DNA of 64,000 bases, from NCBI GenBank assembly GCA_964573695.1, contig CAZNKB010000006.1, positions 8,879-72,878 of the forward strand, in the 5' to 3' direction. The first letter of the stretch is position 1; every line of letters starts with the position of its first letter. The position numbers and the translations under genes were made by a program. The DNA is from an uncultured Gammaproteobacteria bacterium (GTDB taxonomy: Bacteria > Patescibacteriota > Microgenomatia > UBA10105 > UBA927). Below the pieces are notes generated by a model. It was not told the DNA's origin and did no database searches. It saw only the letters and a list, made by a program, of their open reading frames with translations. This document shows, in pieces, positions 18,679 through 58,472 of this stretch.

Positions 18679-19347
18679 TTAGGGTTTAATTGCTCCTTTC
18701 GCGAGAATCCCAAACCCAATGACAGCCAAAGCTAAAAATGGAAGCATATATGCGTAATCTTCGAATCCCGCAACAGGAAGGGTGGTTACACCCATAACTT
18801 TTGTCTGCACGCACATGCTGGCCGTATCCTGGTCGGATTGCCCGCCAGGGCCGGTGGCAGTTACCGTGTTGACGATGTCGCATGTGAGATCATTTTTGAA
18901 TGCAGAGGCGTCTTTGATTTTGACTAATACCCGATTATGGACGGTCGCTCCGGCTTTAAGATCCGAGATTTCGTACGTCAGTTTGTTTGCGTCAGCTTCG
19001 TATCTGCCAGGACCTGAGACAAACGTCACATACTCCGGAAACACATCGATTACCGTAACCGTGGCAAAGTTCACGTTGCTCGTGTTGGTCACCGCTATGT
19101 CGTATTCGACCTCGCTATTCACGGAATACGCGGCATCTGAACTCGTGATGTTTTCAACGAACGTATATGCGTTTTGGGCTTGTCTCACTTTTTTGTTGAC
19201 GACAATTCTGTTTGGGGGACACTCTACGGTATTGCCGTATTGGTTTGTACACGTCGGTGTTTCGTTGTAGTCGGCAAGTACGGTTGGTGTAACCGCAAAC
19301 AATGCGGTTGCCGTTAAGAACAAAGAAATAGCTTTGATTGATTTCAT
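18679..19347 (-). CDS. Cell-surface protein with a DUF11-like repeat domain and a C-terminal sortase sorting signal (LPVAG + TM + basic tail)
   Basis: 222 aa. N-terminal signal MKSIKAISLFLTATALFAV. C-terminal ...TLPVAGFEDYAYMLPFLALAVIGFGILAKGAIKP. Confidence 0.65.
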   Translation of the reverse strand: MKSIKAISLFLTATALFAVTPTVLADYNETPTCTNQYGNTVECPPNRIVVNKKVRQAQNAYTFVENITSSDAAYSVNSEVEYDIAVTNTSNVNFATVTVIDVFPEYVTFVSGPGRYEADANKLTYEISDLKAGATVHNRVLVKIKDASAFKNDLTCDIVNTVTATGPGGQSDQDTASMCVQTKVMGVTTLPVAGFEDYAYMLPFLALAVIGFGILAKGAIKP

Positions 19348-19426
19348 ACTATATAGTTTGCTCTAGTAATTTGAGCGTTTGTGGAGTATATCACACTTAT
19401 ACACCAGAGTCAAGTGTTATAGGCTA

Positions 19427-20305
19427 TTAAATTTTTTGATCCTGGCTTTCTATGAGATCTGCGAATATAAGCAAACGCTGTGTCGTGCTTCCGGGAGGCC
19501 AGCAGGTTTGTAAAATGAGCCTACGAGCACCCCCTTGGGGCGCCAGGTAGGCGACAGCCGTGGGGTCGACGATCTGCTTACCGGTTATTTTGTAGGTGTA
19601 GCTCGCTCCCTTGTAAAACAAAACAACCATGTCGTTCTCTTCCAGATTTTTGAGGAGGTAAAATACGGCATTTAGATCACCCACGAACCAATCGTAATTG
19701 GTGGAGTGGGAAAAGAGGAATACGGTGCCGTCCTCGTTTGGGAAGTAGGAGAGCGAAGAGTGAGCTATACCCTTTTGGAGCGCTGCCAAGTACTCTCCCG
19801 GTTTGGTCGGATTGACAGCCGGAATTACCGCTGCATTGACCCCGATTTTCGGGATAACGAGCGAAAACTCTTTGTTTACCGGATCAATTGAGGCTCCGTC
19901 GGGGGTTTTAAGCGGGTCAAAAACCGCTGGAACTGCCTGTTGAGATGAGGCGACATCTGAAGCATGTTGAGCCTGTTTTGTGCCTGTCAGTCGGGATAGC
20001 TGTGTATTAGCCTCTGCAATGCCAGCTATAACATCGGCTTTGAATCCCGGCCAGGCGTGCTGAGCCTGAATAAGGGCATATTTCGTTTCGAGTCGTATGC
20101 GGGGTGTCAGAGGCCCTGTGAGTCCTCCAAGTGCCAGTGCTATAAGTCCCAATCCCACCAAATGTAGCCCCGATGATTTGTTGCGGTTATGTGAGATTGT
20201 AGATTGGTGTTTTCGTTCGCGTAGGACCGTAAGCGACGAAAGATCGCCGAGAGCGATTTGAGGCTGACTTTGGGTCCATTCAAAGATAATTCCGGTGGGT
20301 TTCAT
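19427..20305 (-). CDS. sortase (transpeptidase) family protein
   Basis: 292 aa. N-terminal TM anchor. Motifs: His in LFSHSTNYDW, catalytic Cys in RLILQTCWPPGS (TLxTC-like), downstream Arg in QRLLIFA. Immediately upstream of the LPVAG substrate gene. Confidence 0.7.
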   Translation of the reverse strand: MKPTGIIFEWTQSQPQIALGDLSSLTVLRERKHQSTISHNRNKSSGLHLVGLGLIALALGGLTGPLTPRIRLETKYALIQAQHAWPGFKADVIAGIAEANTQLSRLTGTKQAQHASDVASSQQAVPAVFDPLKTPDGASIDPVNKEFSLVIPKIGVNAAVIPAVNPTKPGEYLAALQKGIAHSSLSYFPNEDGTVFLFSHSTNYDWFVGDLNAVFYLLKNLEENDMVVLFYKGASYTYKITGKQIVDPTAVAYLAPQGGARRLILQTCWPPGSTTQRLLIFADLIESQDQKI

Positions 20306-20396
20306 GTAATGGGGGAGTATACACTATAAGATATTCTGAAGCAAGCGTATAACGGTTATAAAACGCAAAAGGCGAGAAGATTGTCTTTGGATACTG

Positions 20397-20792
20397 CTAT
20401 ATTTCTATGGGAGCGACGTATTTACCCGCGCGGTAATATCGTCCGTCAGGGCCCTGGGAGTATATACGTCGGTTGCGCGCGATAACTCTAAGTTCCAAAA
20501 TATCGGTGCGCTTCGAAGGAGATCCAAATACTGCAGTCTTGATTCTCCGTTGTCTGCCTGATAATTCCACGACAGTACGCCAGGTGTATGTGCCATGTTG
20601 TTTGGCATCTCTGGCTCCTCTCATACCGTCCCGTAGGCAGGTAAATGACCGGCAATGCCACGCTTTCTCGTCTTCGTATGGTGACACAGGAAGAAGACGA
20701 AGTCCGTCGTCAGTGAGTATTTGGGGAACTAATTCCGTGTGGCACTCGAGTCGTATCGGGCAGCCCTGGCATATGGCGTACTCTTGTTTCAT
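20397..20792 (-). CDS. small Cys-rich hypothetical protein (CxxC-x5-C ... C-x5-C)
   Basis: 131 aa. AICQGCPIRLECH...WHCRSFTCLRDG. Possible metal-binding protein. Overlaps the GNAT gene by 4 nt. Confidence 0.4.
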   Translation of the reverse strand: MKQEYAICQGCPIRLECHTELVPQILTDDGLRLLPVSPYEDEKAWHCRSFTCLRDGMRGARDAKQHGTYTWRTVVELSGRQRRIKTAVFGSPSKRTDILELRVIARNRRIYSQGPDGRYYRAGKYVAPIEI

Positions 20793-21304
20793 ACCAGCTT
20801 CTTTTCAAATTTCAGGAGGCGGGTGTCATTGATTGTCACGTAGTCCGTGAGGGAAAATCCTGCCCCGGTAAATAATTTGATGCTTTTTTCATTGTCCGGT
20901 TTTATAAGCGCCCGCACCGAATGAAGTTGTGCGATATTTTTGGCATAGATAAGGATGTCAGATATTGCCTGTGTCCCGATACCTCGGCTTTGGTACTGCT
21001 TGTCTCCTATGACGATGCCGATTTCTCCCGTCGTTGTGGGGAGTTGATCTTGCCGAAGGCTTACAAACCCGACAGTTTTGTTGTCCGATACGATGTCGAA
21101 GTAATGGCGCAAAGGATCCGTCGTAGCGTTTGTCACCCAACGGTATACTTCTTCAGGATGTTCGGGCAGCACGCCACACATCCATTGTCGTATCTGTGGA
21201 TCCGTGATCCACCGCAGCCAATTGGCTCGTGTTTCTTTGGTCTGTTGGGTCGGCTTTAGGTGGACGTATGCGTGCGTTTCGCGCACTTCCTGTGTTGCAG
21301 TCAT
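20789..21304 (-). CDS. GNAT family N-acetyltransferase
   Basis: 171 aa. Acetyl-CoA motif GIVIGDKQYQSRGIGTQAISDIL (Q/R-x-x-G-x-G/A). Confidence 0.7.
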   Translation of the reverse strand: MTATQEVRETHAYVHLKPTQQTKETRANWLRWITDPQIRQWMCGVLPEHPEEVYRWVTNATTDPLRHYFDIVSDNKTVGFVSLRQDQLPTTTGEIGIVIGDKQYQSRGIGTQAISDILIYAKNIAQLHSVRALIKPDNEKSIKLFTGAGFSLTDYVTINDTRLLKFEKKLV

Positions 21305-21674
21305 GATAAGCGACGGAGTATAACAGAAAAAGTTATAGGATACAAATATAGAGAAAGGATGTATAATGTGTTGTATGTCAGGATATCTTTTTCGTGAACG
21401 AGGGGCCTACATTGTGGGCGTTACGTTTGAGTCGATGAAGCGAGGAAAAGATGCTCGCGACCGATTGCGTGCGCGAGTGTCCTTGCTCACAGAACATTCT
21501 TTCGAAATTGCAGATGCAGCAGATTTGGGAACCGTATGGTTTGGAACGGAAGGGTGGTCTCCCGAACAATTATTACAGGCCGCTCGTAAACGATTTCGTG
21601 CAGCCAGCGGAAAAAGGTGATAACCTCGAGGTCGATGCGTGATAGGAAGTAAGTGGTGATGTGACCCACTCGTT

Positions 21675-24600
21675 TTACACGGCTTTCTTTTTGGCAAACG
21701 ACACTTGAAGTTTGTCCCCCGCAACGTCAATGCGATTTGCTTTCCACGATGGGTTGATCTTGCCGTTTAAGTGCGTGAGTACCAGATCATTGAAATGATC
21801 GAGGCTTTCATGAATTGATTTTTGCCATGGTCTGGCAAGGAGCGGCAAATGGAGGCTCAATGTGTCTTTCTTAACTATGAGGCCATGTGTGGGGTCGGTA
21901 ATGAGTGTCCCCGCAAACTGCGCTTCGCCGACGATTGTTTTGGCCTTCATGTCGGTAAGTTTTACCGTGTTGCCTTCGATTGTAATTTTTCCTCCGGTGA
22001 TCCGGGCCCCCGGTAGTTCGACCGAGGATCGGACGTAATCCATAAGTTCACCGGTGGTAAGTTGTACTGCTGCTTGGGTTTCGCGTGCCTTGTTCAATAC
22101 GTATGTAATACGATCTTCGACTCCTTCAGGGAGGCGCTCGGGAGCGCGAGGTGTCTCCGTTTGTATCGCGGGTGGTTCTGTCGGCTGTGCGTTTGTTACG
22201 TCGGGAGATGCGATGCTTGAGGCGACAGTTTCTGTCGGTGTTTCCGCTTCAGTTGGTTTTTCCGGTTGGTCGCCTGCTAATGTTTCGAGATGTTCGCGGG
22301 GCGATTCGGGTGCGTTCGGGACTGCGGCAACTACCTCTTGCGCTGCGGTTTTTGCAAAGCTCTCAATGTCCGGTGTGGCTGCCATATTGGCGCTGAGGTT
22401 GGTCATATCCGTTATGGTAATCGCACCGTCTTTGAGTTCGTAGGTGAGTCCGAGCGTATCCATGGTGCGTCCAAAATACGCATCAAATCGTGCGGGGTTG
22501 GAAGATTTGAGCGTCGGGTACATGTTGGCATACATATTGTTGATATGGGCCTCCATAGTTTCTTTGGTGAATTGTTCGTTGGCTTTTTTGGCCATGTCTT
22601 CCCAATGCATGTCTTTGTATACTTCGTTGTTTGCAAGCGGCACCGAGGGCTCTGCAAGTCCGAGTTGTTGGAGTTGCATATAAACGGTTTCCTTTGGATC
22701 CATGGTTGCCGCTAACGAAGGGAGAGAAACCGCGACATCCGGAGTTTTTCTGGCGTCCGTTAACATCCAGGCGACCTCCCGTTCTTCCATGAGTGGGGAA
22801 TTGGGGTTATATCCGCCGATAGCAGCTAAAGAACCAGACCGTACAGCAGTGTTTCCCTGAAATGCAGCGGGTACGCTTTGCGTTTCTCCGTGACGGACGA
22901 GGGCATCAAAGATTTCAAACGCACGGTGATGTGCGAATAACATCGGGTAGTTGGCATACGCGTCTTTCGGAAGTTGATATATGCCGCTGACGATATCAAG
23001 AGAAGGATTGGCATCAAATGTATCGATGATGCTGGATAGATACGTGGCTTCGACCGGGTTTCCTGTGCTGTTTTCGGCAATAAGCGAAACTTCCGGCGCG
23101 TCCGGAGGGCGACTTGCGACCAGTGACAATGCGTAGTTACTCAGGTCCCGTTTTATGCGTCCGGAGGTCGGAGGTTCTGCATAGGTATTGGTGATAAATT
23201 GCACCTGCATATCCGGATGATCCGCACGGAAGCGGTCAATTTCTGCTTTGGTGTCTCCTGGTAGTGTGGAGGTGACTGATTCTGCCGGCGGGGTCACGTT
23301 GGCTTCGTAGACGACAAATGCCACGCGCTTCGGATCAAGCGCGGATCCGTCGGCATTTGTTTGTTGCGCGTATGTACTGAGCCGCTGATATATCGTATTG
23401 CCGTTTTGTACCAGGGGAATCGAAACGATTGCTCGTGTGTCAGGCGAGAGGACCGGATTATCTTGAGCTTTGAGCGCTTCAAGTGTTTGTTGTTCTTCCG
23501 GTGTGAGGAGCGAAAGGTACCAATCAATTTCTTCCCGTTCATTGAGTTTTGCTTGCGGATTTTCGGTGAGCCTTGGTGACATACGGTTTGCCCGTGCTTC
23601 ACGGTTTAAGAATGTTTCTTCATAGCCAAACGGACTGATCATGGTTTCACCCGGGATCATCTGACCCATGAGCCCCTCTATGGGAGCGGCTTCGAGGACC
23701 TCTCTATACGGCAAGAAAATCGGTATCCATGGAAGTTCTCGCGCCGCTGCTCCCGGAGTGACAACCGTTTCTACATGGTACGGAATTTCCAGAGGGGCGG
23801 ATGCGAAAATTTTACCCGGCTCATCACTCTTGAATACCTCCGTAAGGGTAAACTGATGTATGGCATCGGTTTTTACCTCAGTTATGGGTGTGGGCACTAT
23901 CGGAGTCCCGACAAATGGCGACTCAGGGCTTTCGGGTAATCCAAGTTTTTCCATGAGAGGAGCTAATTCTGCCTGACTGGGTAAATCGGCATCCCGTCCG
24001 AAATAGCTCATCCGAAGGAGAAGGGCGTCGATTTTGTCCTGATCGGAGCCTTTTTCCAGGAGGTGTAACGCGTCCATAGGACTCTGGCCCGAAGCGACGA
24101 TGTCTTGATAATGTTTGATCGCCAGATCATTCATTTCTGAAAAGCGATGTACGGCTTCCGGACTAAACAGCTCCTTCGGCACATTGATATGCGCATCATT
24201 AGCGATATGGGCGATATCAAATTCTTTGACCGGCGTATCCCCGAATGTGGCATCGCGGAGGCGGGCAACGTGGTCATAGGGGTTGCTTCCGTTATCGCCG
24301 AAACTTACGTTCTGCGGGATTCCGTCGGCCGTATGCGGTACGTAATGCTGTTCATACAGACGGAAAAGATTCTTGATACCATTGGCACTCGCTACCCGAT
24401 GTTCACCACTGGATTTGTCGAGGAAATAATCCCAAAGTCCACCTTCCTGCAGATCACTACCTTTGATGTCGATCATGTCACCTGCATTAGCACTTTCCGG
24501 TGTGCCGGAAACAAATACACTTGTTGCAGGGAACGATTCGATCTTTGCAGGAATGATTTCCTGAGATTTCCACTCAAATCCATTGGCTTTTAGATCTGCC

Positions 24601-27600
24601 GTCAGCTTCGCAAGCTCGGCCGGTGTGCCTTGTAGTTCTCCTGTTTGGGTAAAATCAACGGTACTTACGATTTGCTTATCTGCGTTGAGTATTTGCCAGT
24701 GATGACTACTGTCAAGATATTTGAGTGTATAATCTTCCGGCAATTTCGCGGTAAGTGGCTCTCCGCCTGGTGTTGTCAGGTGGGGAATGGTGACAACGTC
24801 ATGTATGCTGGAGACTGCCTCTCCGGCTTTGTGGGGTTCAGTTATCGATAATCCGGCTTTTACCAGCGCATCTTTGAATTGCTGTTCGGATAAATGCGTT
24901 CCGAGTACCACGTCTTCCTGTCCTTTAAGATTCTCGATAAGGCTGATATCCAATTTTGCGTCATAGAAAACTTTGCCGTTTTCGGTATATGGATTGACAA
25001 TCATTTCTTTGGGTAATTGATATACGTTATGCCCAATGGAAATGATGTGTTCGCCGGTCGGAGGAGATAGTTCGACATGCGACGAACCTGTAGCGTTTGC
25101 TGCGTCAGAAAGTTCGGCTGCCCCCCGGGTAACCGTATCGCTCGTCCCTATATGTGCAAGTCCCTGGAATGCGGCTCCTACCGCGGCTCCGACGACTCCT
25201 GCTTTGACGCCGTATTTGACGGCTTCGATCTTCGCTTCGGATTTGAATTCTTCGAGTATGGCGTCGAGTCCGAGCGCCTTCTCGTCGCCGCTTAGGTTTT
25301 TGGAAGCGAATGGCCACCGGCGCCTCATGATTTCTGCTTCCGGTGCATACGAAGAAACGAGGTTGAGCGTCAATTTCAGCGGATCGTCGAGGGCGTCAAG
25401 CGATTGGGCTCCTTGCCGTAGTACCTGCGTTTGGGTGACCGTTAGTTTTTCCATGAATTCCGCAAATGTATTGCCGCCAAGCACAAGGTCGGCCTGTTCG
25501 GTATGTCCGGCCAGATATGATTCGATATCAGCAAGTGCTTTGTTGGCGGTAAGATCGAGCGCGCTTCGCTCGCTTTCAATGGATTCGCGGTTTGTGTACT
25601 GTATCAAACCGATTCTTTTGGGTCCTGTTTCGCTGACTGCCTTGCGTGCGTGAAGATCGGCAATGGTAGCAAATGACGCCCGTAGTTCATCGTCGGACAG
25701 GTTTGCTTTGAGAGTATCGCCTTCGTAAAGGGAAGATTGCAGTGTCGCGATCATTTCGTCTGCCCTGCGTTGCTTGACTGCAAATTTTTCAAACCAGTTC
25801 CTGCGTTTCTGGGTTTCGGTAAACTGAGCGCCGCTTTCGCGTTCCCGTAGGTGTGTCATGTAATCTTTCTGCAATTGTCCGTATTCACGCCAGCCGGCGA
25901 ACAATCCTCCTGCAAGCGCTCCTCCCGTGAGACTTCCCAGCGGCCCTGTGATAGAGGCGACTGCTTTAAATGGCGCGGTCTTGAGGAAGTTGACTGCCGA
26001 GAGCGCGATTGCAACTCCCGAGCCGATTGTCGCTTCGTTAAAGACCATAGGAACTAAGACATGCTGCTTATTGAGCCAGTCGGCGATTTCCCGGATCTGT
26101 CCGACGCCTTTTTCCACCGCAGTCGGCTCCAAGCTGGTAACTTCTCCCATGGCGCCCAGTCCTAGTCGTATTTGCATGGAGTTTATCGCTTCATCGATAT
26201 TTGCGAGTCCTCCCTCATGGCTCATTTTGGTGCGTAGCGTTTCTGCTACCTCATACAGACTCGAACTATATAATTCTGCCTCAGCAAAAATATCCGGGCG
26301 TGTATTGTTTAGCGTCGCTTTGAAGAATTCTTTTGTTCGGGCATCAAATTCTGCTTTGTCCGCTATTTCGCCACTGGCGTATTGTTTGAGTAAGCTTTGT
26401 ATCCCTTCTACCAACGGTTTGTGTTCTTCGCGTGCAGGGTCGAGAATCTCGAGTTTTTCTCCCAGTTGCTTACGGACGAACTGATCCGCCTGGTCAAAAT
26501 CTCCTCCGAAGCGTGCGCGAACCGCTTTGGCTTCGCGCTCAAATGTCTCGAGACCTTTGATTTCTCCCGTAAGTCTCATGGTTCCGATTTCTTCCAGAGC
26601 GATATTTTGGATTGTGGTGCGCATGCCAACCTTATCTTTGAACCAGTCAACTGCCTTGGTCCCTATTCGGAGTATGAAATTGGAATCTGCCAATTTCGCA
26701 TTGTATTTGTCCGTGGCTCTTCGTTCGGCTAATCTGATCGCGTCTTCCGCAAAGGGTGTTTCTGCTGCCTTGAGCATGTCGATGTAGTATTGGCGGGCTT
26801 TTTCATGGAAATAAATGCCGCCGATGCTTTGCTTCCATGTAGTGACCGCGAAATTTTCTATGTTCGCTACCGCGTCTTTGGTTTTTTCCCAGAGATTGCG
26901 TGTCGCCTGGGTCCGCTCCGCGGATTGCGGATGCGTAAGCTTCTGCATACTACGGTCGGCCAAATCCAGCGCCCGGGTTTCATAGGCTTTGAGCCCCACA
27001 ATGGTAATGACATTGGGGTCTTCGGTCAGGGTTTCCAATATCTCGCGGGCGCCTTTGGCGGGAGTGGGTTCCTGCTGCACTGCCTCCGGCGTTGGAGCCT
27101 CCGGAGCATGTTGCTCTGGAGTCGCGGGAGCGGGAGTTTCGGGAGACAGGGCGGGTGATTCTGTCGGTTTGTCTTGACTTGTCGGGGTTTCCCCAGAGGC
27201 TGCCGGTTCCTGTGGTATTTGAGCCGGTGTTTCCTGTTTGATAGCCGGTGCGGCGGGAGCTTGCGGCTCCAGCGTGAGCATATCTTTCGTGATCATGTGA
27301 GTGGCGTTTTGTTCGTCTGACCATTGCAATCCCGAAATTTTATCCCAGGGTACTTCATCAAAGGCATTGAGATTTGTGAGCGGTTTATCGACGAGCTTGC
27401 CTTCCTCTCCTTTTTTGCGGCTGAGTTCTTTGACGAGAGGAACGATGCTTCCCACTCCGTCGTTGGAGCGTTTCTCTGCCGGTAATATGGTGATATAGGA
27501 AATATCCTTGCCTCCGATAAGCTGCGGCTGTGAAAGATAGATCGGCGTTTCTCCTACGATAATCGATTGCTGTTTGCCGATTTCAGGATTGTTTTGTGGT

Positions 27601-27617
27601 GGGATTGGTTCTGTCAT
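21675..27617 (-). CDS. giant hypothetical protein (1980 aa) with a low-complexity Pro/Glu/Ala/Thr segment and internal glycine-zipper hydrophobic helices
   Basis: Single uninterrupted ORF. Residues ~100-190 are PAAPAIKQETPAQIPQEPAASGETPTSQDKPTESPALSPETPAPATPEQHAPEAPTPEAV. Mid-protein hydrophobic segments VAIALSAVNFLKTAPFKAVASITGPLGSLTGGALAGGLFAGW and VKYGVKAGVVGAAVGAAFQGLAHIG. No enzymatic motif recognised. Confidence 0.6.
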   Translation of the reverse strand: MTEPIPPQNNPEIGKQQSIIVGETPIYLSQPQLIGGKDISYITILPAEKRSNDGVGSIVPLVKELSRKKGEEGKLVDKPLTNLNAFDEVPWDKISGLQWSDEQNATHMITKDMLTLEPQAPAAPAIKQETPAQIPQEPAASGETPTSQDKPTESPALSPETPAPATPEQHAPEAPTPEAVQQEPTPAKGAREILETLTEDPNVITIVGLKAYETRALDLADRSMQKLTHPQSAERTQATRNLWEKTKDAVANIENFAVTTWKQSIGGIYFHEKARQYYIDMLKAAETPFAEDAIRLAERRATDKYNAKLADSNFILRIGTKAVDWFKDKVGMRTTIQNIALEEIGTMRLTGEIKGLETFEREAKAVRARFGGDFDQADQFVRKQLGEKLEILDPAREEHKPLVEGIQSLLKQYASGEIADKAEFDARTKEFFKATLNNTRPDIFAEAELYSSSLYEVAETLRTKMSHEGGLANIDEAINSMQIRLGLGAMGEVTSLEPTAVEKGVGQIREIADWLNKQHVLVPMVFNEATIGSGVAIALSAVNFLKTAPFKAVASITGPLGSLTGGALAGGLFAGWREYGQLQKDYMTHLRERESGAQFTETQKRRNWFEKFAVKQRRADEMIATLQSSLYEGDTLKANLSDDELRASFATIADLHARKAVSETGPKRIGLIQYTNRESIESERSALDLTANKALADIESYLAGHTEQADLVLGGNTFAEFMEKLTVTQTQVLRQGAQSLDALDDPLKLTLNLVSSYAPEAEIMRRRWPFASKNLSGDEKALGLDAILEEFKSEAKIEAVKYGVKAGVVGAAVGAAFQGLAHIGTSDTVTRGAAELSDAANATGSSHVELSPPTGEHIISIGHNVYQLPKEMIVNPYTENGKVFYDAKLDISLIENLKGQEDVVLGTHLSEQQFKDALVKAGLSITEPHKAGEAVSSIHDVVTIPHLTTPGGEPLTAKLPEDYTLKYLDSSHHWQILNADKQIVSTVDFTQTGELQGTPAELAKLTADLKANGFEWKSQEIIPAKIESFPATSVFVSGTPESANAGDMIDIKGSDLQEGGLWDYFLDKSSGEHRVASANGIKNLFRLYEQHYVPHTADGIPQNVSFGDNGSNPYDHVARLRDATFGDTPVKEFDIAHIANDAHINVPKELFSPEAVHRFSEMNDLAIKHYQDIVASGQSPMDALHLLEKGSDQDKIDALLLRMSYFGRDADLPSQAELAPLMEKLGLPESPESPFVGTPIVPTPITEVKTDAIHQFTLTEVFKSDEPGKIFASAPLEIPYHVETVVTPGAAARELPWIPIFLPYREVLEAAPIEGLMGQMIPGETMISPFGYEETFLNREARANRMSPRLTENPQAKLNEREEIDWYLSLLTPEEQQTLEALKAQDNPVLSPDTRAIVSIPLVQNGNTIYQRLSTYAQQTNADGSALDPKRVAFVVYEANVTPPAESVTSTLPGDTKAEIDRFRADHPDMQVQFITNTYAEPPTSGRIKRDLSNYALSLVASRPPDAPEVSLIAENSTGNPVEATYLSSIIDTFDANPSLDIVSGIYQLPKDAYANYPMLFAHHRAFEIFDALVRHGETQSVPAAFQGNTAVRSGSLAAIGGYNPNSPLMEEREVAWMLTDARKTPDVAVSLPSLAATMDPKETVYMQLQQLGLAEPSVPLANNEVYKDMHWEDMAKKANEQFTKETMEAHINNMYANMYPTLKSSNPARFDAYFGRTMDTLGLTYELKDGAITITDMTNLSANMAATPDIESFAKTAAQEVVAAVPNAPESPREHLETLAGDQPEKPTEAETPTETVASSIASPDVTNAQPTEPPAIQTETPRAPERLPEGVEDRITYVLNKARETQAAVQLTTGELMDYVRSSVELPGARITGGKITIEGNTVKLTDMKAKTIVGEAQFAGTLITDPTHGLIVKKDTLSLHLPLLARPWQKSIHESLDHFNDLVLTHLNGKINPSWKANRIDVAGDKLQVSFAKKKAV

Positions 27618-31703: not shown

Positions 31704-32333
31704 ATGCAACCTACTATAATCGGATTACTCGGTAAACCGTTGGCGGGGAAAGACACTGTTGCCCGTGCACTTGCAGACTCGCTTCCGAATCTCGCTACAA
31801 TTTCCATGGGAGAGGTAGTGCGGGAGGTGAAAGCAGTGGGACCTGCTCACCGTTTTTGGAATGAATTACATGATTCTATAGGTATAGCCGATGCTGGCGG
31901 TATCGCTCCGGACGGACCTATTTTCGAATGTCTGACCAAGCTTATCACCGAGCAGTTTGACAAGGGCGCGGAAACAGTTGTTTGGGTTGCCGGCCCGAGA
32001 AGTGAGCAGCAGCTAGACTGGTTGGATTCGTGGACAAAAGATTGCGGATATCAAGAACAATTCGTGTATATCGATGTCCCGGATGAAATGGTGTATGAGC
32101 GGGTTAGTGAGCGCGCTGCACACATGAGAGAAGATGACAAGGTGGTTCCCTATAGACTTGCCGAGTTTGAACGGATTACCAAGCCAGTTATAGATCGGCT
32201 TCGGGAGCAGGGGAGAATCCGCGAGATAAGTGGCTTGGGTGGGAGAGAAGCCGTGGGTTCGCGTGCTGTGGAGATATTTATGCCCGTACAAAAAGAACAC
32301 GAGCCTACATTACCCACGATGGCGCGACGATAA
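31704..32333 (+). CDS. adenylate kinase-like nucleoside monophosphate kinase (divergent, P-loop)
   Basis: 209 aa. Walker A GKPLAGKDT. NMP-binding-like ISMGEVVREV. Ends in LPTMARR. Paralog of 33699-34343. Confidence 0.55.
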   Translation: MQPTIIGLLGKPLAGKDTVARALADSLPNLATISMGEVVREVKAVGPAHRFWNELHDSIGIADAGGIAPDGPIFECLTKLITEQFDKGAETVVWVAGPRSEQQLDWLDSWTKDCGYQEQFVYIDVPDEMVYERVSERAAHMREDDKVVPYRLAEFERITKPVIDRLREQGRIREISGLGGREAVGSRAVEIFMPVQKEHEPTLPTMARR

Positions 32334-32349
32334 TCGGCACGTTTGTATA

Positions 32350-33174
32350 TTAGCGTGAGGAGGATTTCTGTTTGGACGCAGACCGCGCTAAGCGCTTAAG
32401 GCGAATTTTGATGTCATCGACTTCGTTAGTTATGAGTTCCAGTTCTTTGGATAGTGTTGACTTCTGTATATGCCGCGCTTCTTCCATTTCTTCACGCACT
32501 TCCTCAAAGCCACTGATGACGACCCCGATAAACAAATTTAGGATAATCATGGTTCCCACAACGATAAAACTGACGTAGTAAAGCGTCGAGATAAGTGAAT
32601 ATGACTGCAGGGAGTAGATTTCTACCCAGCCCTCTAATGTGACGATCTCAAAAAGGGTGATAAGCGAGCGCCCCAAGTCGCCGAAGTGCGCAGGATCAGA
32701 ATCACCGAATTCTACGTTTCCTATGACAGCATAGATATAGAATTGTATAAAAAGGAGAAGTCCCACATACCCGATAGACGGAATGCTTTTGATGAGTGCA
32801 CCTACGAGGAGTTGAAGGCGGGGAAGCGCGGAAAATACTCGAAAGATCCGCAATATGCGCACGAGTCGCAAGACCGAGGCGTACGCGCCTCCGAATGGCA
32901 GATAAAAAAGACTGGTGACGGCAAAGTCAAATGTATTCCATTTCGAGCGGAAAAATCTCCAGGGTTTATTGCCCAGAGCCAATATCCGCAGCGTAATTTC
33001 CACGGTGAAGATGATTTGGATGATTGTGTCCAGGGTGGCAAACAGTGGATGGAATCGATTGGAAAGATTAGGATACGTTTCTAGTCCTACAGCAAGCGAA
33101 GCGACAAGGATAACTCCCATGATGAAGGGGGCAAACAGACGATGTTGCGTGATCGTGCGTCCTATTGCATTCAT
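32350..33174 (-). CDS. Voltage-gated ion channel, single 6TM domain, NaChBac/BacNaV-like
   Basis: 274 aa. S4 helix with Arg at every third position (VLRLVRILRIFRVFSALPRL). Pore/selectivity filter FEIVTLEGWVEI (TLESW-like). C-terminal coiled-coil. TATAAT immediately before the ATG, so possibly leaderless. Confidence 0.75.
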   Translation of the reverse strand: MNAIGRTITQHRLFAPFIMGVILVASLAVGLETYPNLSNRFHPLFATLDTIIQIIFTVEITLRILALGNKPWRFFRSKWNTFDFAVTSLFYLPFGGAYASVLRLVRILRIFRVFSALPRLQLLVGALIKSIPSIGYVGLLLFIQFYIYAVIGNVEFGDSDPAHFGDLGRSLITLFEIVTLEGWVEIYSLQSYSLISTLYYVSFIVVGTMIILNLFIGVVISGFEEVREEMEEARHIQKSTLSKELELITNEVDDIKIRLKRLARSASKQKSSSR

Positions 33175-33225
33175 GAATATGGATTATAGAAGAATATTTT
33201 TTGGTGGGCAACGATTACTACGCTT

Positions 33226-33465
33226 TTATCTGGTCCGCCTGGGTTTTTGGGCTTCGAGCAGCGTGTGGCGTTCGGTATGAGTTGCCGCATTGCCGAACTG
33301 GGTACGGGATCTCCGTTCATATTGCTCCGCTTCTTCGTGCCGGCCCATTTTAGCAAATATCTCCGCTAACCGGTGATAGACGGCAGACAGATCCCACGCG
33401 AGCTGCGTCATTTTTTCCTCTGTTTGTTGGTGATCTAATATGACCTCAATGGGTTTTGTTGCCAT
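33226..33465 (-). CDS. small hypothetical protein
   Basis: 79 aa ORF. No SD. Confidence 0.3.
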   Translation of the reverse strand: MATKPIEVILDHQQTEEKMTQLAWDLSAVYHRLAEIFAKMGRHEEAEQYERRSRTQFGNAATHTERHTLLEAQKPRRTR

Positions 33466-33698: not shown

Positions 33699-34343
33699 GT
33701 GAAGCCGATCCTCCTTGCAATCATAGGCAAACCCCTTGCCGGCAAAGATACCCAGGCAGATTTACTTGTCGCAGCTCACCCCGAGGCGGTCAAAATATCT
33801 ACAGGGCACATTATGCGTGCGGTGCGTGAGGAAGGCGAAACCCATAGATTTTGGCCTCTTATCGGGCCGTATATCCCCATGATGGAGCAGGGGCTTAAGC
33901 TACCGGATGAACCTACAATTGCGATGCTAGGAGAAGTGATACAAGAGCAGCTTACTGAGGGGAAGCGACTGCTGGTTGTTGCCGGTTCTCCCAGGGGTAC
34001 GGAACAGCTCGAAGGGTTTGAGCGTATCGCAAGCACAACCGGCGCCAAGCTGGTGCTCGTTCATATGGATGCGACCGATGAAGAAACCTACAAAAGAAGT
34101 GCTGCCCGCAACGAGGGAAGGGTAGACGACACACCCCAGGTTCATAAGGTACGGCTTACGGAGTACGAAGAGTATGTCGGGCCTATGGTGGATAAACTCG
34201 CCCGCGAAAACAGGCTTATTTGGGTCAACGGTATGCAGCCGGTTGAGGGGGTATTTCGGCAGTTAGAGCAACAGTTACGTCAGCACATGCTCGACCCTGA
34301 AATCGCCCCGGAAATTACCTTGCCCGCCATGGCCCGCCGTTAA
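33699..34343 (+). CDS. adenylate kinase-like nucleoside monophosphate kinase (paralog)
   Basis: 214 aa, GTG start. GKPLAGKDT. ISTGHIMRAVRE (adenylate-kinase NMP-binding motif). Ends in LPAMARR. Confidence 0.6.
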   Translation: MKPILLAIIGKPLAGKDTQADLLVAAHPEAVKISTGHIMRAVREEGETHRFWPLIGPYIPMMEQGLKLPDEPTIAMLGEVIQEQLTEGKRLLVVAGSPRGTEQLEGFERIASTTGAKLVLVHMDATDEETYKRSAARNEGRVDDTPQVHKVRLTEYEEYVGPMVDKLARENRLIWVNGMQPVEGVFRQLEQQLRQHMLDPEIAPEITLPAMARR

Positions 34344-36515: not shown

Positions 36516-37400
36516 TTAGCCGAGCGCGTGTAAAACGATTCGGAATGTTTCGAAGAGACCATAGACGCCGAGTCCGATAAAAGCAAGAGCCCCCAAAAAC
36601 GAAACCACTTCGTTCTTCACGACGATAATTGTTTTTTTGGGAGAGAGGAAGAGCGCGATATTGAGTAACGTGTGTGAAGCGATGACACCTATGGCGAATC
36701 CATATACGTTGACGACCGTAAACAATGGTACATAGCCAGCAAAATCATCCAGTCCCAAGATAAAGGGTACACTTGCAGAAAATATGAGGAGCTGCGGCCA
36801 GGGCAAGCTGGATTTTCCTTTCATGGCACTTCCTAAGTCTGGCATGACTCTGCGGAGGAGCGGATCGATGATTTTTTTGACCCGATCAAGGAGTCCATGC
36901 ATAAGGTAAAACAGAATGCGCTTCATCCCTCCCTGGCCCTGCCAGTTCGCAAAATGCTCCAGCGATCCGTGCGCAAGCTCAAAGAGAACCAAAGAGGCGA
37001 TAAATACCATAAGTGCGAGCAGAAGGTCGACGTGTTTGAGTGTGACCCATAGGCCGATAATGGCAATAGTGCCGATTGTATTGCCGGCAGCGGTGCCGAT
37101 TTCAAGAGCGATGCGATTGCGCCAGCCTGGATTGGCCGCCATCATTCTGCCGATAAATATGGCGAAGTCGATACTGGTTTTAAGATATATGGTCGAGCCG
37201 ACGAGGATGTCTACCCAGCGGATTTCGAGGTGGATTTTTTCCGATGAAGGGATGAGGTTAAATATAACGATTGCCCCGTGCAGTAGCCCTAGGAATCCCG
37301 CCATAACTACTCCGGTCAAGGCAATAGGGATAAACTGGGAAAGAGCGGATGAGCGGTCGATTTTTTCCAAAAGTCTGTTCATGAAGATATATTGTAACAA
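36516..37400 (-). CDS. integral membrane protein (possibly TerC/DUF475-like)
   Basis: 294 aa with ~8 TM helices. ILGLDDFAGYVP motif. Family assignment is uncertain. Confidence 0.5.
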   Translation of the reverse strand: MLQYIFMNRLLEKIDRSSALSQFIPIALTGVVMAGFLGLLHGAIVIFNLIPSSEKIHLEIRWVDILVGSTIYLKTSIDFAIFIGRMMAANPGWRNRIALEIGTAAGNTIGTIAIIGLWVTLKHVDLLLALMVFIASLVLFELAHGSLEHFANWQGQGGMKRILFYLMHGLLDRVKKIIDPLLRRVMPDLGSAMKGKSSLPWPQLLIFSASVPFILGLDDFAGYVPLFTVVNVYGFAIGVIASHTLLNIALFLSPKKTIIVVKNEVVSFLGALAFIGLGVYGLFETFRIVLHALG

Positions 37401-40236: not shown

Positions 40237-40274
40237 CATCGCCTGACGCGACGTGTTACCCGCGATGATTTTTG

Positions 40275-40347
40275 TCGGAGTGGAGAGATTCGAACTCTCG
40301 ATCTCACGGTCCCGAACCGTGCGCATTACCAACTGTGCTACACCCCG
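40275..40347 (-). tRNA. tRNA-Pro (anticodon CGG)
   Basis: Manual fold: acceptor CGGGGTG/CACTCCG, perfect anticodon stem CACGG/CCGTG, loop TTCGGGA, T-arm GAGAG-TTCGAAT-CTCTC, discriminator A. No encoded CCA. Confidence 0.8.
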
Positions 40348-40425
40348 TAGTCATGGTATTGTAGCATAAATTTGCGGTAGAATAGGGGAGCTGTCCCCCG
40401 TAGCCCTGCTCGCCAGTGCCACAGG

Positions 40426-40497
40426 GCCCTTGTAGCTCAATGGATAGAGCAGACCCGTCCTAAGGGTAAGATGGGGGTTCGATTCCCTCCAGGGGCA
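40426..40497 (+). tRNA. tRNA-Arg (anticodon CCU)
   Basis: Acceptor GCCCTTG/CAGGGGC, D-arm GCTC-AATGGATA-GAGC, anticodon loop GTCCTAA, T-arm GGGGG-TTCGATT-CCCTC, discriminator A. Confidence 0.75.
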
Positions 40498-40502
40498 CAG
40501 GC

Positions 40503-45032: not shown

Positions 45033-45866
45033 ATGAGTCTTAGTAGTCAAAAAATACTTCAAGTTAAGATAACCACAGCTTCAAAAAAATTAATCCTAGA
45101 GGAAATAAAAAAGTACCTCATTCAATCCGTTCGCGTCTCATCATCCGGTACTTCCCGTAAGGTCCGACCATTTATTATTACGACGCCGAATCCGGAACAA
45201 ATCGTTTTTGCTCAGTCGCATAGTGATTTTCGAAATATACTTAATCGGGCCGATGTGGCGCTCCCTGACGGAATCGGATTGCTTCTTGCCAGCAGGATTT
45301 TATCCGGCAAAGTACTGGGAGCTCCGGGTGTGCAAATTTCCCAGCGGGTGGCCGGTGTTGATTTTATGAATGAACTCGTCACCTTGGCAGAGCTTCAGCG
45401 CGTCAGTATAGGACTTATAGGCGGTTACAACGGTTTAGCAGTCAAAGCGTTAGATTGCTTACAGGCATCACACCCGAAGCTATCGGGGTGGGCCATGGAC
45501 GGGCCGGAGTTAGTCGGAGAAGATTTTGACTCCATACAATGGCCGGGTGATCAATACTGGGTAAATCTGGCAAAAAAAATTCGGGAAACCCATACGCATA
45601 TCGTCTTTGTGGGGCTTGGCGCCCCAAAGCAGGAATATGTGACTATGCGATTGAGTGATAAAATGAATTTTCCGGTCATATATATGAGTGTCGGAGGATC
45701 GTTTGATGTGATAGCTGGTAGACTTCGTCGTGCACCGATTTGGATTAGATCGATAGGGTTTGAGTGGTTTTGGCGATTACTTCAGGAGCCATGGCGTTGG
45801 CGCCGACAGCGAGCCTTGCTGCAATTTATGGTATTGATGTTAAAAAACATCGCCCTGTCGCGTTAA
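45033..45866 (+). CDS. WecB/TagA/CpsF family glycosyltransferase (GT26)
   Basis: 277 aa. LPDGIGLLLAS, VGLGAPKQEYV, GGSFDVIAGRLRRAPIWIRSIGFEWFWRLLQEPWRWRRQ. Confidence 0.8.
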   Translation: MSLSSQKILQVKITTASKKLILEEIKKYLIQSVRVSSSGTSRKVRPFIITTPNPEQIVFAQSHSDFRNILNRADVALPDGIGLLLASRILSGKVLGAPGVQISQRVAGVDFMNELVTLAELQRVSIGLIGGYNGLAVKALDCLQASHPKLSGWAMDGPELVGEDFDSIQWPGDQYWVNLAKKIRETHTHIVFVGLGAPKQEYVTMRLSDKMNFPVIYMSVGGSFDVIAGRLRRAPIWIRSIGFEWFWRLLQEPWRWRRQRALLQFMVLMLKNIALSR

Positions 45867-45905
45867 ATAGATTCAAAGCCAGGCTTTGATGTAGAGGGGA
45901 GGGGT

Positions 45906-46142
45906 ATGGCTCAAGATATAGAAATTGAAGTACAAATGAGAATAAAGAGGAGGATACGCGTTCCCTTGATTGCGGGATTTGCACTGGTGCAACAAGCCGG
46001 ACGCATGAGTCGTATATTTGATATCGGAAAAGCAAGAGCGATAGATATGTATGAAGCAGGAGTAGCGCTCTTGGGGCGTAATCAGGAAGTGCTTGTAGAA
46101 GATGCCAAGGGACGAAAGGTGTTTCGACGACGCAATCGTTAG
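45906..46142 (+). CDS. hypothetical small protein
   Basis: 78 aa ORF. Confidence 0.25.
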   Translation: MAQDIEIEVQMRIKRRIRVPLIAGFALVQQAGRMSRIFDIGKARAIDMYEAGVALLGRNQEVLVEDAKGRKVFRRRNR

Positions 46143-46233
46143 CGTTAAGCACAAATTATGATATGTATTTCAGATAGCTGATATTGTTTGTTATATAAAC
46201 GTCTTTAGATTTTTTTAGTATTACGATGCTTCT

Positions 46234-46506
46234 ATGAGGAGAGGGAAGTGTCTGCCCCAAGGTTTGGACGAGGGCGCCTGCGGTGCCGGAACCCCTGTTA
46301 TAGAACGACCTGCCCGGGTTGTGTTGTCTTGGGGCAGAACATATGAAACGCAGAATTATCGGGTTGACGTGCTGCAAGCATGGTTGGATCGAGGCGATTT
46401 CGCTGATCACGAGCGTGTTTTCGTATGGAAGCATGTCGGGATACTTTGGTGGCGACGAAAAATCGCCCACAGTGTGAAGCCAAGAGATATCCTCGGTATA
46501 AAATGA
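46234..46506 (+). CDS. hypothetical small protein
   Basis: 90 aa ORF. Confidence 0.25.
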   Translation: MRRGKCLPQGLDEGACGAGTPVIERPARVVLSWGRTYETQNYRVDVLQAWLDRGDFADHERVFVWKHVGILWWRRKIAHSVKPRDILGIK

Positions 46507-46640
46507 GATTTTAAGTTATCTATTGATATAGATAATAGTATTTTGCACTAAGAAGATGCCAAAAAATATTTTTACCATATCTTTCTATAATATAAAGATA
46601 TCTTTCGGCCGGGCTCTCGCATAGCTTAGATGTTATCTTC

Positions 46641-46982
46641 GTGATATACTCCCTCCCTAATGGAGTTTGTATGAAAAAGACGTGTGAAAACGCGGGCTGC
46701 ATATTAAATCAGCTTGGAAACTGTTTTGGGGCGAGATTTCTAGGCGAGCAACCGAGCGTGTTGCAAAGTGAGGAGTATTGGCGGGCCAAAGCAGAAGAAG
46801 AAAATAGTCGCAGACGGCAGGCAAATATGGCTCCCGCACAGCCTGATTTTCTTCGGCGTGAGCACATCAAAGATACCCGATATACCTGGCAGGTCGCCAA
46901 GCGCGAACATTGCCGCAGAAGCGATCGTGCATTGGGCAGCGCATTGAGGGCCTACGATGTGATAGCTGCCCCATTTTTATGA
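46641..46982 (+). CDS. hypothetical protein
   Basis: 113 aa ORF. Confidence 0.3.
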   Translation: MIYSLPNGVCMKKTCENAGCILNQLGNCFGARFLGEQPSVLQSEEYWRAKAEEENSRRRQANMAPAQPDFLRREHIKDTRYTWQVAKREHCRRSDRALGSALRAYDVIAAPFL

Positions 46983-46992
46983 CAATTATCCT

Positions 46993-47304
46993 ATGACTAC
47001 AAGAGTCGCCTGTCACCAGGGGAAGGAACGGAGTGTCGCCGTAGCAGGATTATACAGGTCTAAAGGATATGACTATGTATCGTTTTACGGTGGGATAGAG
47101 CGGATGATTACGTTAAGCGTAAGAGAGCTCAGGAGAGAAGTGACGCGAGACGATGACGTCATATTAATCTGTGAACCGTGGAGAGAGTGGGATCCGCAAC
47201 TGAAAGCCGTGGAACAGGCAGAAGAACTTCTCAAGCGCGCCGGCAGACGATATAGTCGATCAACGACAACAGAATTGATGAAGGCTTTGATAGGAAGACG
47301 ATAA
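46993..47304 (+). CDS. hypothetical protein
   Basis: 103 aa ORF, 10 nt after the previous one. Confidence 0.3.
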   Translation: MTTRVACHQGKERSVAVAGLYRSKGYDYVSFYGGIERMITLSVRELRREVTRDDDVILICEPWREWDPQLKAVEQAEELLKRAGRRYSRSTTTELMKALIGRR

Positions 47305-47404
47305 TTTTGTTATAGATGCGTTGATATCATCGAAGCCGTTAGTCACCGCTCAATCCTGTCGAATGGTACTGCGTATCTGAGCGAACGTGAAGTGGTTCGT
47401 GACG

Positions 47405-47650
47405 TTATTTACGAAGTGGTCGTCTTCGGGAGCCTGTGGGCGGACCGAATGCTTCATGTGTTGATTTCGTATACTCGCGCGTTCCATGATCCACCGCAGC
47501 TCCCACGACGCTTTCCATGAGTTTTCGTAATCGGGATCCTGCCCAATTTGTCAGCGCTCGGAATTTTTCCCGAGTAAGAAATCGTTTAGGTTGAGTTGTT
47601 TCGGCTGTCATATAGTCGCGTATGGTATGTTTTTTCCGTGTCAAATGCAA
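47405..47650 (-). CDS. hypothetical protein
   Basis: 81 aa ORF. Confidence 0.3.
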   Translation of the reverse strand: MHLTRKKHTIRDYMTAETTQPKRFLTREKFRALTNWAGSRLRKLMESVVGAAVDHGTREYTKSTHEAFGPPTGSRRRPLRK

Positions 47651-47736
47651 TATGTCTGTAAATCATGCTCCGCAATTGATCTTCGATTCATGGTATAATA
47701 CCAGTCATATCGAGGCAAACGTAAGAAACGTCCGTC

Positions 47737-48948
47737 ATGAGAATTCTATATCTTCAAACGTTTCCGTTTTGGGGAAGCGGCTCAGGCACATACGCACGAC
47801 ATTTGGCGAGCGAAGTGGGTCGTCGTCATAAAGTCGCCATTCTTGCTCCCGACACACGTCCCATTGAGCGAGCTAAGTTGTATTCTGTGGCACTTCCATT
47901 CCCGGTAGCCTTTACCGGGCATCCTGAGTGGCCCGATTGCAAGCTTTATACACAACTTAATAATGACGAAATATACCGGGTTTACAAGGTGCTGCTTGAG
48001 TCTGCGATAGCAGCAGTAGTCGATTTCCGGCCCGATATCATTCATGTTCACCACGCCTTCCCGTTTTCTTGGGCTGCGGCGTTTATCAAGGATTTTTATA
48101 ACATTCCGTACGTAGTGACGATTCATGGATCCGAACTGCCGTCCATGGAAAAAGAGAAACGGTTTATTAGGGCTACATATTATGCGATGTATCGTGCTAA
48201 ACAGATATTTCCGAATTCCGGATATACGAGAGACTGGTTTTTGAGAATTTTCAAGGGAGATTTTCATGAAAAAAGCCGAGTAATCCCCGGGGGTGTGAAC
48301 GTCGACAAATTCATCTATAGCGAGTCGGGCGCGAAATCCGTCGATAAGGAACTCAAGCTACATGGTAAGCCGGTCGTGGTATTTGCCGGAAAACTCACAA
48401 AATACAAAGGAGTAGAGTTCCTCGTCGGGGCGGCAAAAAATATCCATGGGGAAGTCGTCATATTGGGGGACGGTCCGGAAAAACAGCGCTTACAGGAAAA
48501 AGCGAGACAACTGAATTTAACAAATATTCATTGGGTGGGTCATTTGGGTGCAGGGATCAAAAAGCTCGTACCGTATTATTCCCGGGCGGACGTATTTGTA
48601 GCTCCCAGCGTGTGGGACGAGCCGTTGGGGCTCGTCATATTGGAAGCTATGGCATGTCAGACACCAGTTGTGGTTACCAGAAAAGGCGGAATTCCGCTTG
48701 CCGTCAAAGAAGGATATAACGGGCTGTTTGTCCGTGCGCGAAATAGTGCTGAGATCGTCGAGAAGGTCAATAAACTATTAGATAACGCGTCTTTTCGGTA
48801 TAAAATGGGCCAGAACGCACGTAAATCGGTAGAAGAAAAATTCTCCTGGGAAACGATTGCGCATAAATTCGAACTTTCGTATGCCAAATATGCCAAAAAA
48901 TCCAACGGATCGGCGTTTTCCGTGCAAGCACCGGCGGCAAAGAGCTGA
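47737..48948 (+). CDS. GT4 family glycosyltransferase
   Basis: 403 aa. MRILYLQTFPFWGSGSGTYARHL. C-terminal GHLGAGIKKLVPYYSRADVFVAPSVWDEPLGLVILEAMACQTPVVVTRKGG (E-x7-E). Confidence 0.8.
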   Translation: MRILYLQTFPFWGSGSGTYARHLASEVGRRHKVAILAPDTRPIERAKLYSVALPFPVAFTGHPEWPDCKLYTQLNNDEIYRVYKVLLESAIAAVVDFRPDIIHVHHAFPFSWAAAFIKDFYNIPYVVTIHGSELPSMEKEKRFIRATYYAMYRAKQIFPNSGYTRDWFLRIFKGDFHEKSRVIPGGVNVDKFIYSESGAKSVDKELKLHGKPVVVFAGKLTKYKGVEFLVGAAKNIHGEVVILGDGPEKQRLQEKARQLNLTNIHWVGHLGAGIKKLVPYYSRADVFVAPSVWDEPLGLVILEAMACQTPVVVTRKGGIPLAVKEGYNGLFVRARNSAEIVEKVNKLLDNASFRYKMGQNARKSVEEKFSWETIAHKFELSYAKYAKKSNGSAFSVQAPAAKS

Positions 48949-49013
48949 CGTAATATATCGTACATCCAAATACCACACAGACCGTTACAATAAGATTTCT
49001 CTATTATATTACT

Positions 49014-49247
49014 ATGCGTAAAACAACAACCGAAGTTACCGGGTATACCATGTATTATTCTGAGCCAGGTGAACTCGACAAGATTATGGCCCAGGGTCAC
49101 GAGTATGATATTTGTAAAATTGGCTGGACCGGTCCCAACACCGGGGCAAGGCGTGTCGCATTTACATCCGATGAATCAGGAAATCGGAGATTCGAGCGTA
49201 AAATGCGCGCACTCAAATTTGAAATTCAGGACGTATCCGCAGTCTGA
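49014..49247 (+). CDS. hypothetical small protein
   Basis: 77 aa ORF between GT4 genes. Confidence 0.3.
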   Translation: MRKTTTEVTGYTMYYSEPGELDKIMAQGHEYDICKIGWTGPNTGARRVAFTSDESGNRRFERKMRALKFEIQDVSAV

Positions 49248-49294
49248 TTTGTCTTTCAGGTGACTTCTTTTTCCGTTTGACATACACTGGTTGT

Positions 49295-50365: not shown

Positions 50366-50441
50366 GTGATTTTTGGTTTTCCTTGTTTGTCCCCTTTGTG
50401 GTACGATCGGGGCTCCGTTTAGAAGTGGGTATACGTAAGCT

Positions 50442-50660
50442 ATGCACGAACGAAAGCGTCTTCATTTGCTGACTGGCCTCATGCGCAGAGTGGAAGAGTT
50501 TGAGGAAGAAGCTGTGGACATTGAGGTATTTCTTGGTGGAGAGTGGAAAGCCCGGGTTATGGTGCTGCCGCGTTGGCAGATAGAGATTATGCAGCGACGC
50601 GGCGTATATCACATGACTGATGATGATAAAGAAGAAATTCAGGTCCGGTTAGCCTCGTAG
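50442..50660 (+). CDS. hypothetical small protein
   Basis: 72 aa ORF. Confidence 0.3.
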   Translation: MHERKRLHLLTGLMRRVEEFEEEAVDIEVFLGGEWKARVMVLPRWQIEIMQRRGVYHMTDDDKEEIQVRLAS

Positions 50661-50711
50661 TTAAGGTAAGCGCATTCATCAGTATCCAAATCTACATGGT
50701 ATGATGAATAT

Positions 50712-52867: not shown

Positions 52868-52907
52868 AGTACATACACGCTTCTATTCTCCGTGCTAAGA
52901 TAAATTC

Positions 52908-58403: not shown

Positions 58404-58472
58404 ACGACAGATACGCCGGGGATCGATAAACCTCTTAACTTGCCGATATTATCATCGAGCATTGGTACGAAT

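Follow-up and report, generated by a model that had tools for sequence, protein, structure and literature searches.

A TLEGWVE-filter voltage-gated channel gene of the AnclNav/CavMr type in a Patescibacteria/CPR lineage

A coding sequence for a putative voltage-gated channel is located on the minus strand at positions 32350-33174 of the 64-kb stretch of DNA analysed here (the window; all coordinates given below are positions within it). The initial annotation described the product as a NaChBac-type channel with glycine in place of the serine of the TLESW selectivity filter, and regarded the glycine as an uncommon residue that could alter selectivity. The locus raises the question of which branch of the bacterial channels the protein belongs to, and which ion it may be expected to pass. 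We find that it is an intact and conserved channel gene of the AnclNav/CavMr type, i.e., a further sequence of a family already described rather than an aberrant sodium channel.

The coding sequence is complete (274 amino acids plus stop codon), running from ATG to stop at full length, with the start codon at the same position as in homologues, and public data contain an identical protein (P0001). Pfam finds one Ion_trans six-transmembrane (6-TM) domain (PF00520, residues 11-229, E = 2.5e-49) in a protein whose size falls within the approximately 230-300 amino acids of the BacNaV superfamily. Among prokaryotic channels in the PDB, the best sequence matches were NaChBac (6vwx, E = 1e-51) and NavCt/NavAe (4bgn, 1e-48), followed by NavMs (1e-39) and NavRh (4dxw, 6e-36). 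Closer kinship to eukaryotic Cav3 or Nav channels than to NaChBac was considered and rejected, because the high total scores of the eukaryotic proteins are sums over four domains: the channel scores 179 bits against NaChBac and 40-65 bits against single Cav3 domains. An AF2 model built with a 50-sequence homologue alignment as input has a pLDDT of 86.4, and its top Foldseek match in the PDB is again NaChBac (6vwx, E = 5.9e-12, target-normalised TM 0.77), with NavMs, CavAb, and NavAb next. The open reading frame, the S4 segment and the pore motif of the initial annotation are thus real, with Pfam and NaChBac E values far beyond chance, and Pfam, the PDB matches, alignment, AF2 and Foldseek all place the protein among the single-domain voltage-gated channels of bacteria, the BacNaV superfamily.

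The voltage-sensor domain (S1-S4, residues 14-116; 32827-33135, minus strand) was delimited from the AF2 helices (S1 14-32, S2 42-66, S3 78-91, S4 99-116, S4-S5 linker 118-129) and by alignment with NaChBac, NavAb, and CavMr; all of S1-S4 is accounted for by the model, the Pfam match and the alignment. The S4 stretch reads SVLRLVRILRIFRVFSALPRLQ in translation, and its gating charges R103, R106, R109, and R112 (RLVRILRIFR; 32839-32868, minus strand) occupy the register of R1-R4 in NaChBac. The original count of four to five charges with arginine at every third residue holds for these four, but R119 is out of register and belongs to the S4-S5 linker. In the reference alignment, which consists of the channel and the sequence set published with the CavMr paper (PMC7041947 supplement), the sensor counter-charges and charge-transfer residues are E32, D49, F56, E59, R63, N80, and D83, so that the channel combines the R1-R4 arginines with the acidic and aromatic S1-S3 counter-residues characteristic of BacNaVs.

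The pore domain (32503-32784, minus strand; AF2 and alignment) is composed of S5 (131-156), P1 (167-178), the selectivity filter, P2 (183-188), a short P2-S6 link and S6 from residue 194, which in the model is continuous with the C-terminal helix to residue 273; S6 carries G207 and N213. The pore stretch in translation is FEIVTLEGWVEI. The filter heptad T179-L-E-G-W-V-E185 (32620-32640, minus strand) is encoded by the codons ACA TTA GAG GGC TGG GTA GAA, and its T-L-(E/D)-x-W core, residues 179-183, sits between P1 and P2. When the channel is aligned to NaChBac, NavAb, and NavMs, as the initial annotation had proposed, both S4 and the filter fall in register: TLEGW shares its exact columns with TLESW of NaChBac, NavAb, NavMs, and NavAe and with TLEGWVD of CavMr, which places the pore motif at the selectivity filter itself. 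The cytoplasmic C-terminal domain (residues 225-274; 32353-32502, minus strand) is made up of a neck and a predicted coiled-coil helix continuous with S6, and in the alignment corresponds to the coiled-coil regions of NaChBac, NavMs, and CavMr. In the 50-homologue alignment, F56, E59, N80, D83, R103, R106, R109, T179, L180, W183, G207, and N213 are invariant, and D49, R112, E181, and G182 are conserved in at least 90%; conservation is highest across P1-filter-P2.

The label "NaChBac-type" gives way when the channel is placed among its relatives. BLASTP against the reference set returned AnclNavs first (Chlorobi OLB5, 45% identity; Pirellula, 38%; NavPp, 42%; Moorea, 37%), with Coraliomargarita (41%), Leptospira (42%), and CavMr (39%, E = 2e-58) as further members of the same clade; NaChBac (39%) ties with CavMr at the same BLASTP score, and identity drops to 30-32% for NavAb and NavMs. 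In a neighbour-joining tree, a simple distance method (BLOSUM62 distances, 266 trimmed columns, 100 bootstraps), the channel falls inside the AnclNav clade together with CavMr and NavPp in 99 of 100 bootstraps (80% when Teredinibacter is counted), apart from both the Bacillus group and the NavAb-like group. The channel and its nearest database relatives form a subclade with 98% bootstrap support, and branching within the AnclNavs is poorly supported (7-41%). The filter agrees with this placement: in AnclNav filters position 4 is Gly or Asp and position 7 is polar or acidic (PMC7041947), and TLEGWVE has Gly4 and Glu7. CavMr, NavPp, and several other AnclNavs bear an extracellular loop between P2 and S6, about 20 residues long and containing two cysteines, which is absent from the channel and its subclade. 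Such a loop is not a stated defining feature of the CavMr type, and loop-less AnclNavs exist beyond this subclade. No structure from the AnclNav clade, CavMr included, was found in the PDB copy searched.

Among these relatives Gly4 is common, contrary to the original impression that it is uncommon. TLEGW is the filter of 81 of the best 120 of 1,925 database homologues, in which TLEGWVE is the commonest heptad (35 sequences) and TLEGWVD the second (23). A metagenome search with alignment A1, from which 80 loci were kept out of at least 526 relatives, gave a similar picture, with TLEGW in 44 of the 73 readable filters and with 40 loop-less and 33 loop-bearing loci; a metagenome scan with the single channel protein as query found nothing. 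The exact heptad TLEGWVE also occurs in the published dataset, in two Thaumarchaeota.

Upstream of the gene, a consensus scan detected a sigma-70-like promoter, TTGCCC-17 nt-TATAAT (33183-33211, minus strand), as a pattern match at 10 of 12 positions. The TATAAT (33183-33188) does not directly abut the start codon, as had been stated, since 8 nt separate it from the ATG (A at 33174). With this spacing, transcription would be expected to begin no more than about 2 nt from the ATG, and no Shine-Dalgarno sequence is found upstream of it, so that the suggested leaderless or near-leaderless transcript remains plausible; the geometry is, however, genome-wide and not specific to the channel gene. A -10-like hexamer ending 6-13 nt before the start precedes 12 of 39 window genes, compared with 2.3 ± 1.5 in shuffled sequences (maximum 9 in 2,000 shuffles), and an SD-like core is present at only 5 of the 39. 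Leaderless-type initiation thus appears, from these sequence patterns, to be a genome-wide habit. Downstream, a terminator-like hairpin followed by a T-run (32298-32318, minus strand) lies 32 nt beyond the stop codon of the channel gene, where it overlaps the 3' end of a convergent adenylate-kinase-like gene; the consensus scan gave six such sites in the region where 2.2 were expected, which makes them weak evidence of termination.

The channel gene is flanked by two adenylate-kinase-like paralogues (31704-32333 and 33699-34343, both plus strand), which have weak Pfam ADK matches (E = 5e-11 and 2e-14), both end in TLP(T/A)MARR and both have TTGCAA-17-TATAAT promoters. Directly upstream of the channel and on the same strand is an ORF of 79 amino acids without Pfam match (33226-33465, minus strand), which is preceded by a separate TACAAT, 6 nt from its ATG, and is a called gene on an identical public contig (L001). 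Elsewhere in the window, a minus-strand cell-surface cluster (18679-27617) encodes a DUF11 protein (18679-19347), a sortase (19427-20305), a GNAT acetyltransferase (20789-21304), and a 1,980-aa protein without Pfam match (21675-27617), and a plus-strand glycosyltransferase run (45033-54338) contains WecG/TagA, four GT4 genes and a glycogen/starch-synthase-like gene. A protein with HTH_17 and dCache domains (55687-57636) is encoded just upstream of a giant open frame (57603-64000, plus strand, frame 2) of at least 2,132 amino acids, which continues past the window end and consists of collagen-like Gly-X-Y repeats with periods of 45 and 90 nt. Between 58 and 64 kb the raised GC content (0.55-0.59) and the purine skew are explained by this repeat frame, and the shorter ORFs on both strands of this region are repeat artefacts. 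The sole RNA genes found in the window are a divergent tRNA pair at 40274-40498, in which tRNA-Pro(CGG) is encoded by the minus strand and tRNA-Arg(CCT) by the plus strand. No Ca2+ pump, exchanger, EF-hand or Ca2+-binding protein was found among the approximately 40 ORFs of the window.

The gene content of the window fits the Patescibacteria/CPR: many ORFs lack a Pfam match, and sortase, DUF11, PEGA, MreB, and Maf are encoded, in addition to the 1,980-aa protein, several GT4 glycosyltransferases and the two adenylate-kinase-like genes. The named relatives of the window MreB are Candidatus Gottesmanbacteria and the "Patescibacteria group" (72-85% identity). Both observations make a small genome plausible, and the streamlined host supposed in the initial annotation agrees with this lineage, which has small genomes. 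A literature search found no paper linking CPR/Patescibacteria with voltage-gated or BacNav channels.

The channel gene seems at home in this lineage. Its GC3 is 0.52 (genome mean 0.53 ± 0.06), and a metagenome contig (L003) carries a syntenic orthologue with 65% identity by tblastn (63% by global alignment), whose neighbours are orthologous to the M16 peptidase, both adenylate-kinase-like proteins (71% for ADK-like-2 and 38% for ADK-like-1) and the ORF at 36516-37400 (74%) of the window. The adenylate-kinase-like pair is also linked to the channel gene in L003 (3277-4588), in a different gene order. The conserved synteny indicates that the channel gene has been vertically inherited in the lineage, and recent horizontal acquisition was rejected on the basis of the native GC3 and the syntenic orthologue. 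S4, the S4-S5 linker, S5, and P1-filter-P2 are 83-93% identical between the channel and the L003 orthologue, whereas the N-terminus, S2, and the C-terminal domain are 36-48% identical, a sequence profile of the kind expected of a working channel. When GTDB species genomes were scanned with the channel protein, a single relative was found, L002, which is 54% identical and bears the label of an uncultured gammaproteobacterium. The 80 metagenome loci obtained with alignment A1 have no neighbouring genes in common with the window and so add nothing to the case for synteny. Other representatives of the wider clade occur in clearly non-CPR contexts; the 1.14-Mb contig encoding P0082 was considered as a complete CPR genome and rejected, since its neighbouring genes (LysR regulators, DoxX, P-type ATPases) are not CPR-like.

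What the filter may select can be judged from experiments on two other AnclNavs. CavMr of Meiothermus ruber, with the filter 183-TLEGWVD-189, was the first native prokaryotic voltage-gated Ca2+ channel to be described (Shimomura et al. 2020, eLife 9:e52828; PMC7041947). Its PCa/PNa is 218 in the wild type, 144 in D7M (TLEGWVM), 40 in V6T, 11.9 in G4S (in which K+ and Cs+ become permeant), and 7.7 in G4D; in NavPp (TLEDWTD) the ratio is 0.31, rising to 1.7 in T6V, to 41 in D4G and to 215 when the CavMr filter is introduced (PMC7041947 Table 1). The mutant values identify Gly4 as the key determinant and Val6 as supportive, with position 7 dispensable. The glycine is therefore not a curiosity with an effect still to be guessed at but, in CavMr, an established determinant of Ca2+ selectivity (218 against 11.9 in G4S; PMC7041947). 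All mammalian Cavs likewise conserve Gly4 in two of their domains, I and III (PMC7041947), and a 2021 review states that within the AnclNavs selectivity correlates with filter sequence. The channel has both CavMr-type residues, Gly4 (G182) and Val6 (V184), and departs from CavMr at position 7 by a conservative exchange of Asp for Glu; Ca2+ selectivity is thus the best prediction. We consider it most likely that the channel is Ca2+-selective, a prediction from a filter whose experimental record comes solely from loop-bearing scaffolds 39-42% identical to it. Two further observations count against this reading: the window yielded no Ca2+ pump, exchanger or Ca2+-binding protein, and of the four AnclNavs that were cloned in 2020, two showed no current that could be detected (PMC7041947).

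Two other views of the pore have to be weighed against Ca2+ selectivity. The channel could be a Na+-selective, NaChBac-type protein in which the exchange of Ser for Gly is neutral or minor: NaChBac is both its top single-domain PDB match (E = 1e-51) and its top structural match, the channel is as identical to NaChBac as it is to CavMr (39%), and its relatives are named "voltage-gated sodium channel" in databases. Those names are automatic annotations, however, and the neighbour-joining tree places the channel among the AnclNavs, outside the Bacillus group; moreover, TLEGWV filters gave PCa/PNa above 200 in both AnclNav backgrounds tested, and with Ser in place of Gly the ratio was only 11.9 and monovalent cations were no longer discriminated (PMC7041947). 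We regard Na+ selectivity as quite improbable. The absence of the P2-S6 loop from the channel's subclade bears on another alternative, in which the loop-less pore scaffold leaves the voltage-gated channel weakly selective, passing Ca2+ plus Na+ or K+. Single filter changes shift selectivity strongly (V6T 40, D4G 41; PMC7041947), which implies sensitivity to context, and TLEGW is also found in NavAb-like sequences. Yet the channel has both required residues, the filter was transferable between two channels differing in sequence (PMC7041947), and P1-filter-P2 is the part of the protein that varies least, so that weak selectivity appears rather unlikely.

Another conceivable reading is that the gene, in a shrinking genome, is decaying or has already lost its function. 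An orthologue about 65% identical to the channel (P0078; locus L006, 7762-8567 on contig CAZKLT010000010.1 of GCA_964553825.1) is split into ORFs of 85 and 188 amino acids by a one-base homopolymer indel near residue 74, which points to a pseudogene or else to a fault of assembly. Set against this relative, whose indel may have arisen in assembly, the gene described here is full length with every gating and pore residue intact, shares its start position with homologues, has its own promoter-like site, and has a syntenic orthologue conserved most in the functional segments; decay is very improbable indeed. We therefore favour, as the reading that best fits the sequence analysis, a subunit of a homotetrameric, depolarisation-activated AnclNav channel that probably serves voltage-gated Ca2+ entry in a Patescibacteria/CPR cell.

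In the mechanism that we propose, four subunits would assemble into a homotetrameric cation channel activated by depolarisation and held together by the C-terminal coiled coil. In each subunit, the four-arginine S4 sensor would be coupled through the S4-S5 linker to the S5-P1-filter-P2-S6 pore. Gly4 and Val6 of TLEGWVE, which behaved as necessary and transferable determinants in the CavMr and NavPp experiments, are predicted to confer high selectivity for Ca2+ over Na+, with Glu at position 7, where CavMr has Asp and where the residue is dispensable in CavMr. The presumed outcome would be entry of Ca2+ into the Patescibacteria/CPR cell on depolarisation.

For channel biophysics the sequence offers nothing new in principle, as the role of Gly4 in CavMr has been known since 2020 and TLEGW is the commonest filter in the clade. 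Its interest lies in a predicted voltage-gated Ca2+ channel being kept in conserved synteny in the CPR, where genome reduction makes retained membrane proteins informative. The channel would also probe whether the Gly4/Val6 rule holds beyond the loop-bearing scaffold, and a short, loop-less variant could be an easier target than CavMr for structural and electrophysiological work. A broader proposal, that a compact, loop-less AnclNav subclade of about 270 amino acids with TLEGWV(E/D) filters has been vertically retained in the CPR and is genuinely Ca2+-selective and voltage-gated, is speculative and, in our judgement, unlikely as a whole. If true, it would provide ultra-small host-dependent cells with a route from depolarisation to Ca2+ signalling, e.g., at host contact, and would yield a minimal native CaV for structure determination.

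Among known channels, CavMr (ZP_04038264) is one of the closest counterparts: it belongs to the same AnclNav clade and is likewise a single 6-TM subunit of about 280 amino acids with a four-arginine S4 and a C-terminal coiled coil (predicted in the channel), and filter positions 1-6, including Gly4 and Val6, are identical, with an acidic residue at position 7 in both. The two differ in overall sequence (39% identity), in the residue at position 7 (Asp in CavMr, Glu in the channel), in the two-cysteine P2-S6 loop that CavMr alone of the two bears, and in host, a Deinococcus-Thermus thermophile for CavMr and a CPR bacterium for the channel, which is known from its sequence alone. NavPp of Plesiocystis pacifica (ZP_01909854; 42% identity) is an AnclNav Na+ channel blocked by Ca2+ that becomes Ca2+-selective once given the CavMr filter; unlike the channel, it has Asp4 and Thr6 in its native TLEDWTD filter and a long Cys-containing loop. 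The channels of Candidatus Nitrosocosmicus exaquare and Candidatus Nitrosotenuis aquarius are AnclNavs with the exact TLEGWVE heptad and a short P2-S6 link, but they come from archaeal hosts, are 34% identical to the channel, fall on another AnclNav sub-branch and are known from sequence.

The canonical BacNaVs, i.e., NaChBac (6vwx), NavAb (3rvy), NavMs (5hvx), and NavAe/NavCt (4bgn), share with the channel the superfamily, the fold and the short P2-S6 link, and their S4, filter, S6, and coiled coil align with it in register. They belong to other clades and are Na+-selective, with TLESW(A/S)(S/M) filters that have Ser4 and a neutral residue at position 7. In domain I of human Cav3.3 (PDB 7wli), the filter heptad is identical to that of the channel and the pore stretches are nearly identical (FEIVTLEGWVEI in the channel and FQVITLEGWVEI in Cav3.3), whereas Cav3.1-3.3 are T-type Ca2+ channels formed by a single 24-TM chain with four non-identical filters.
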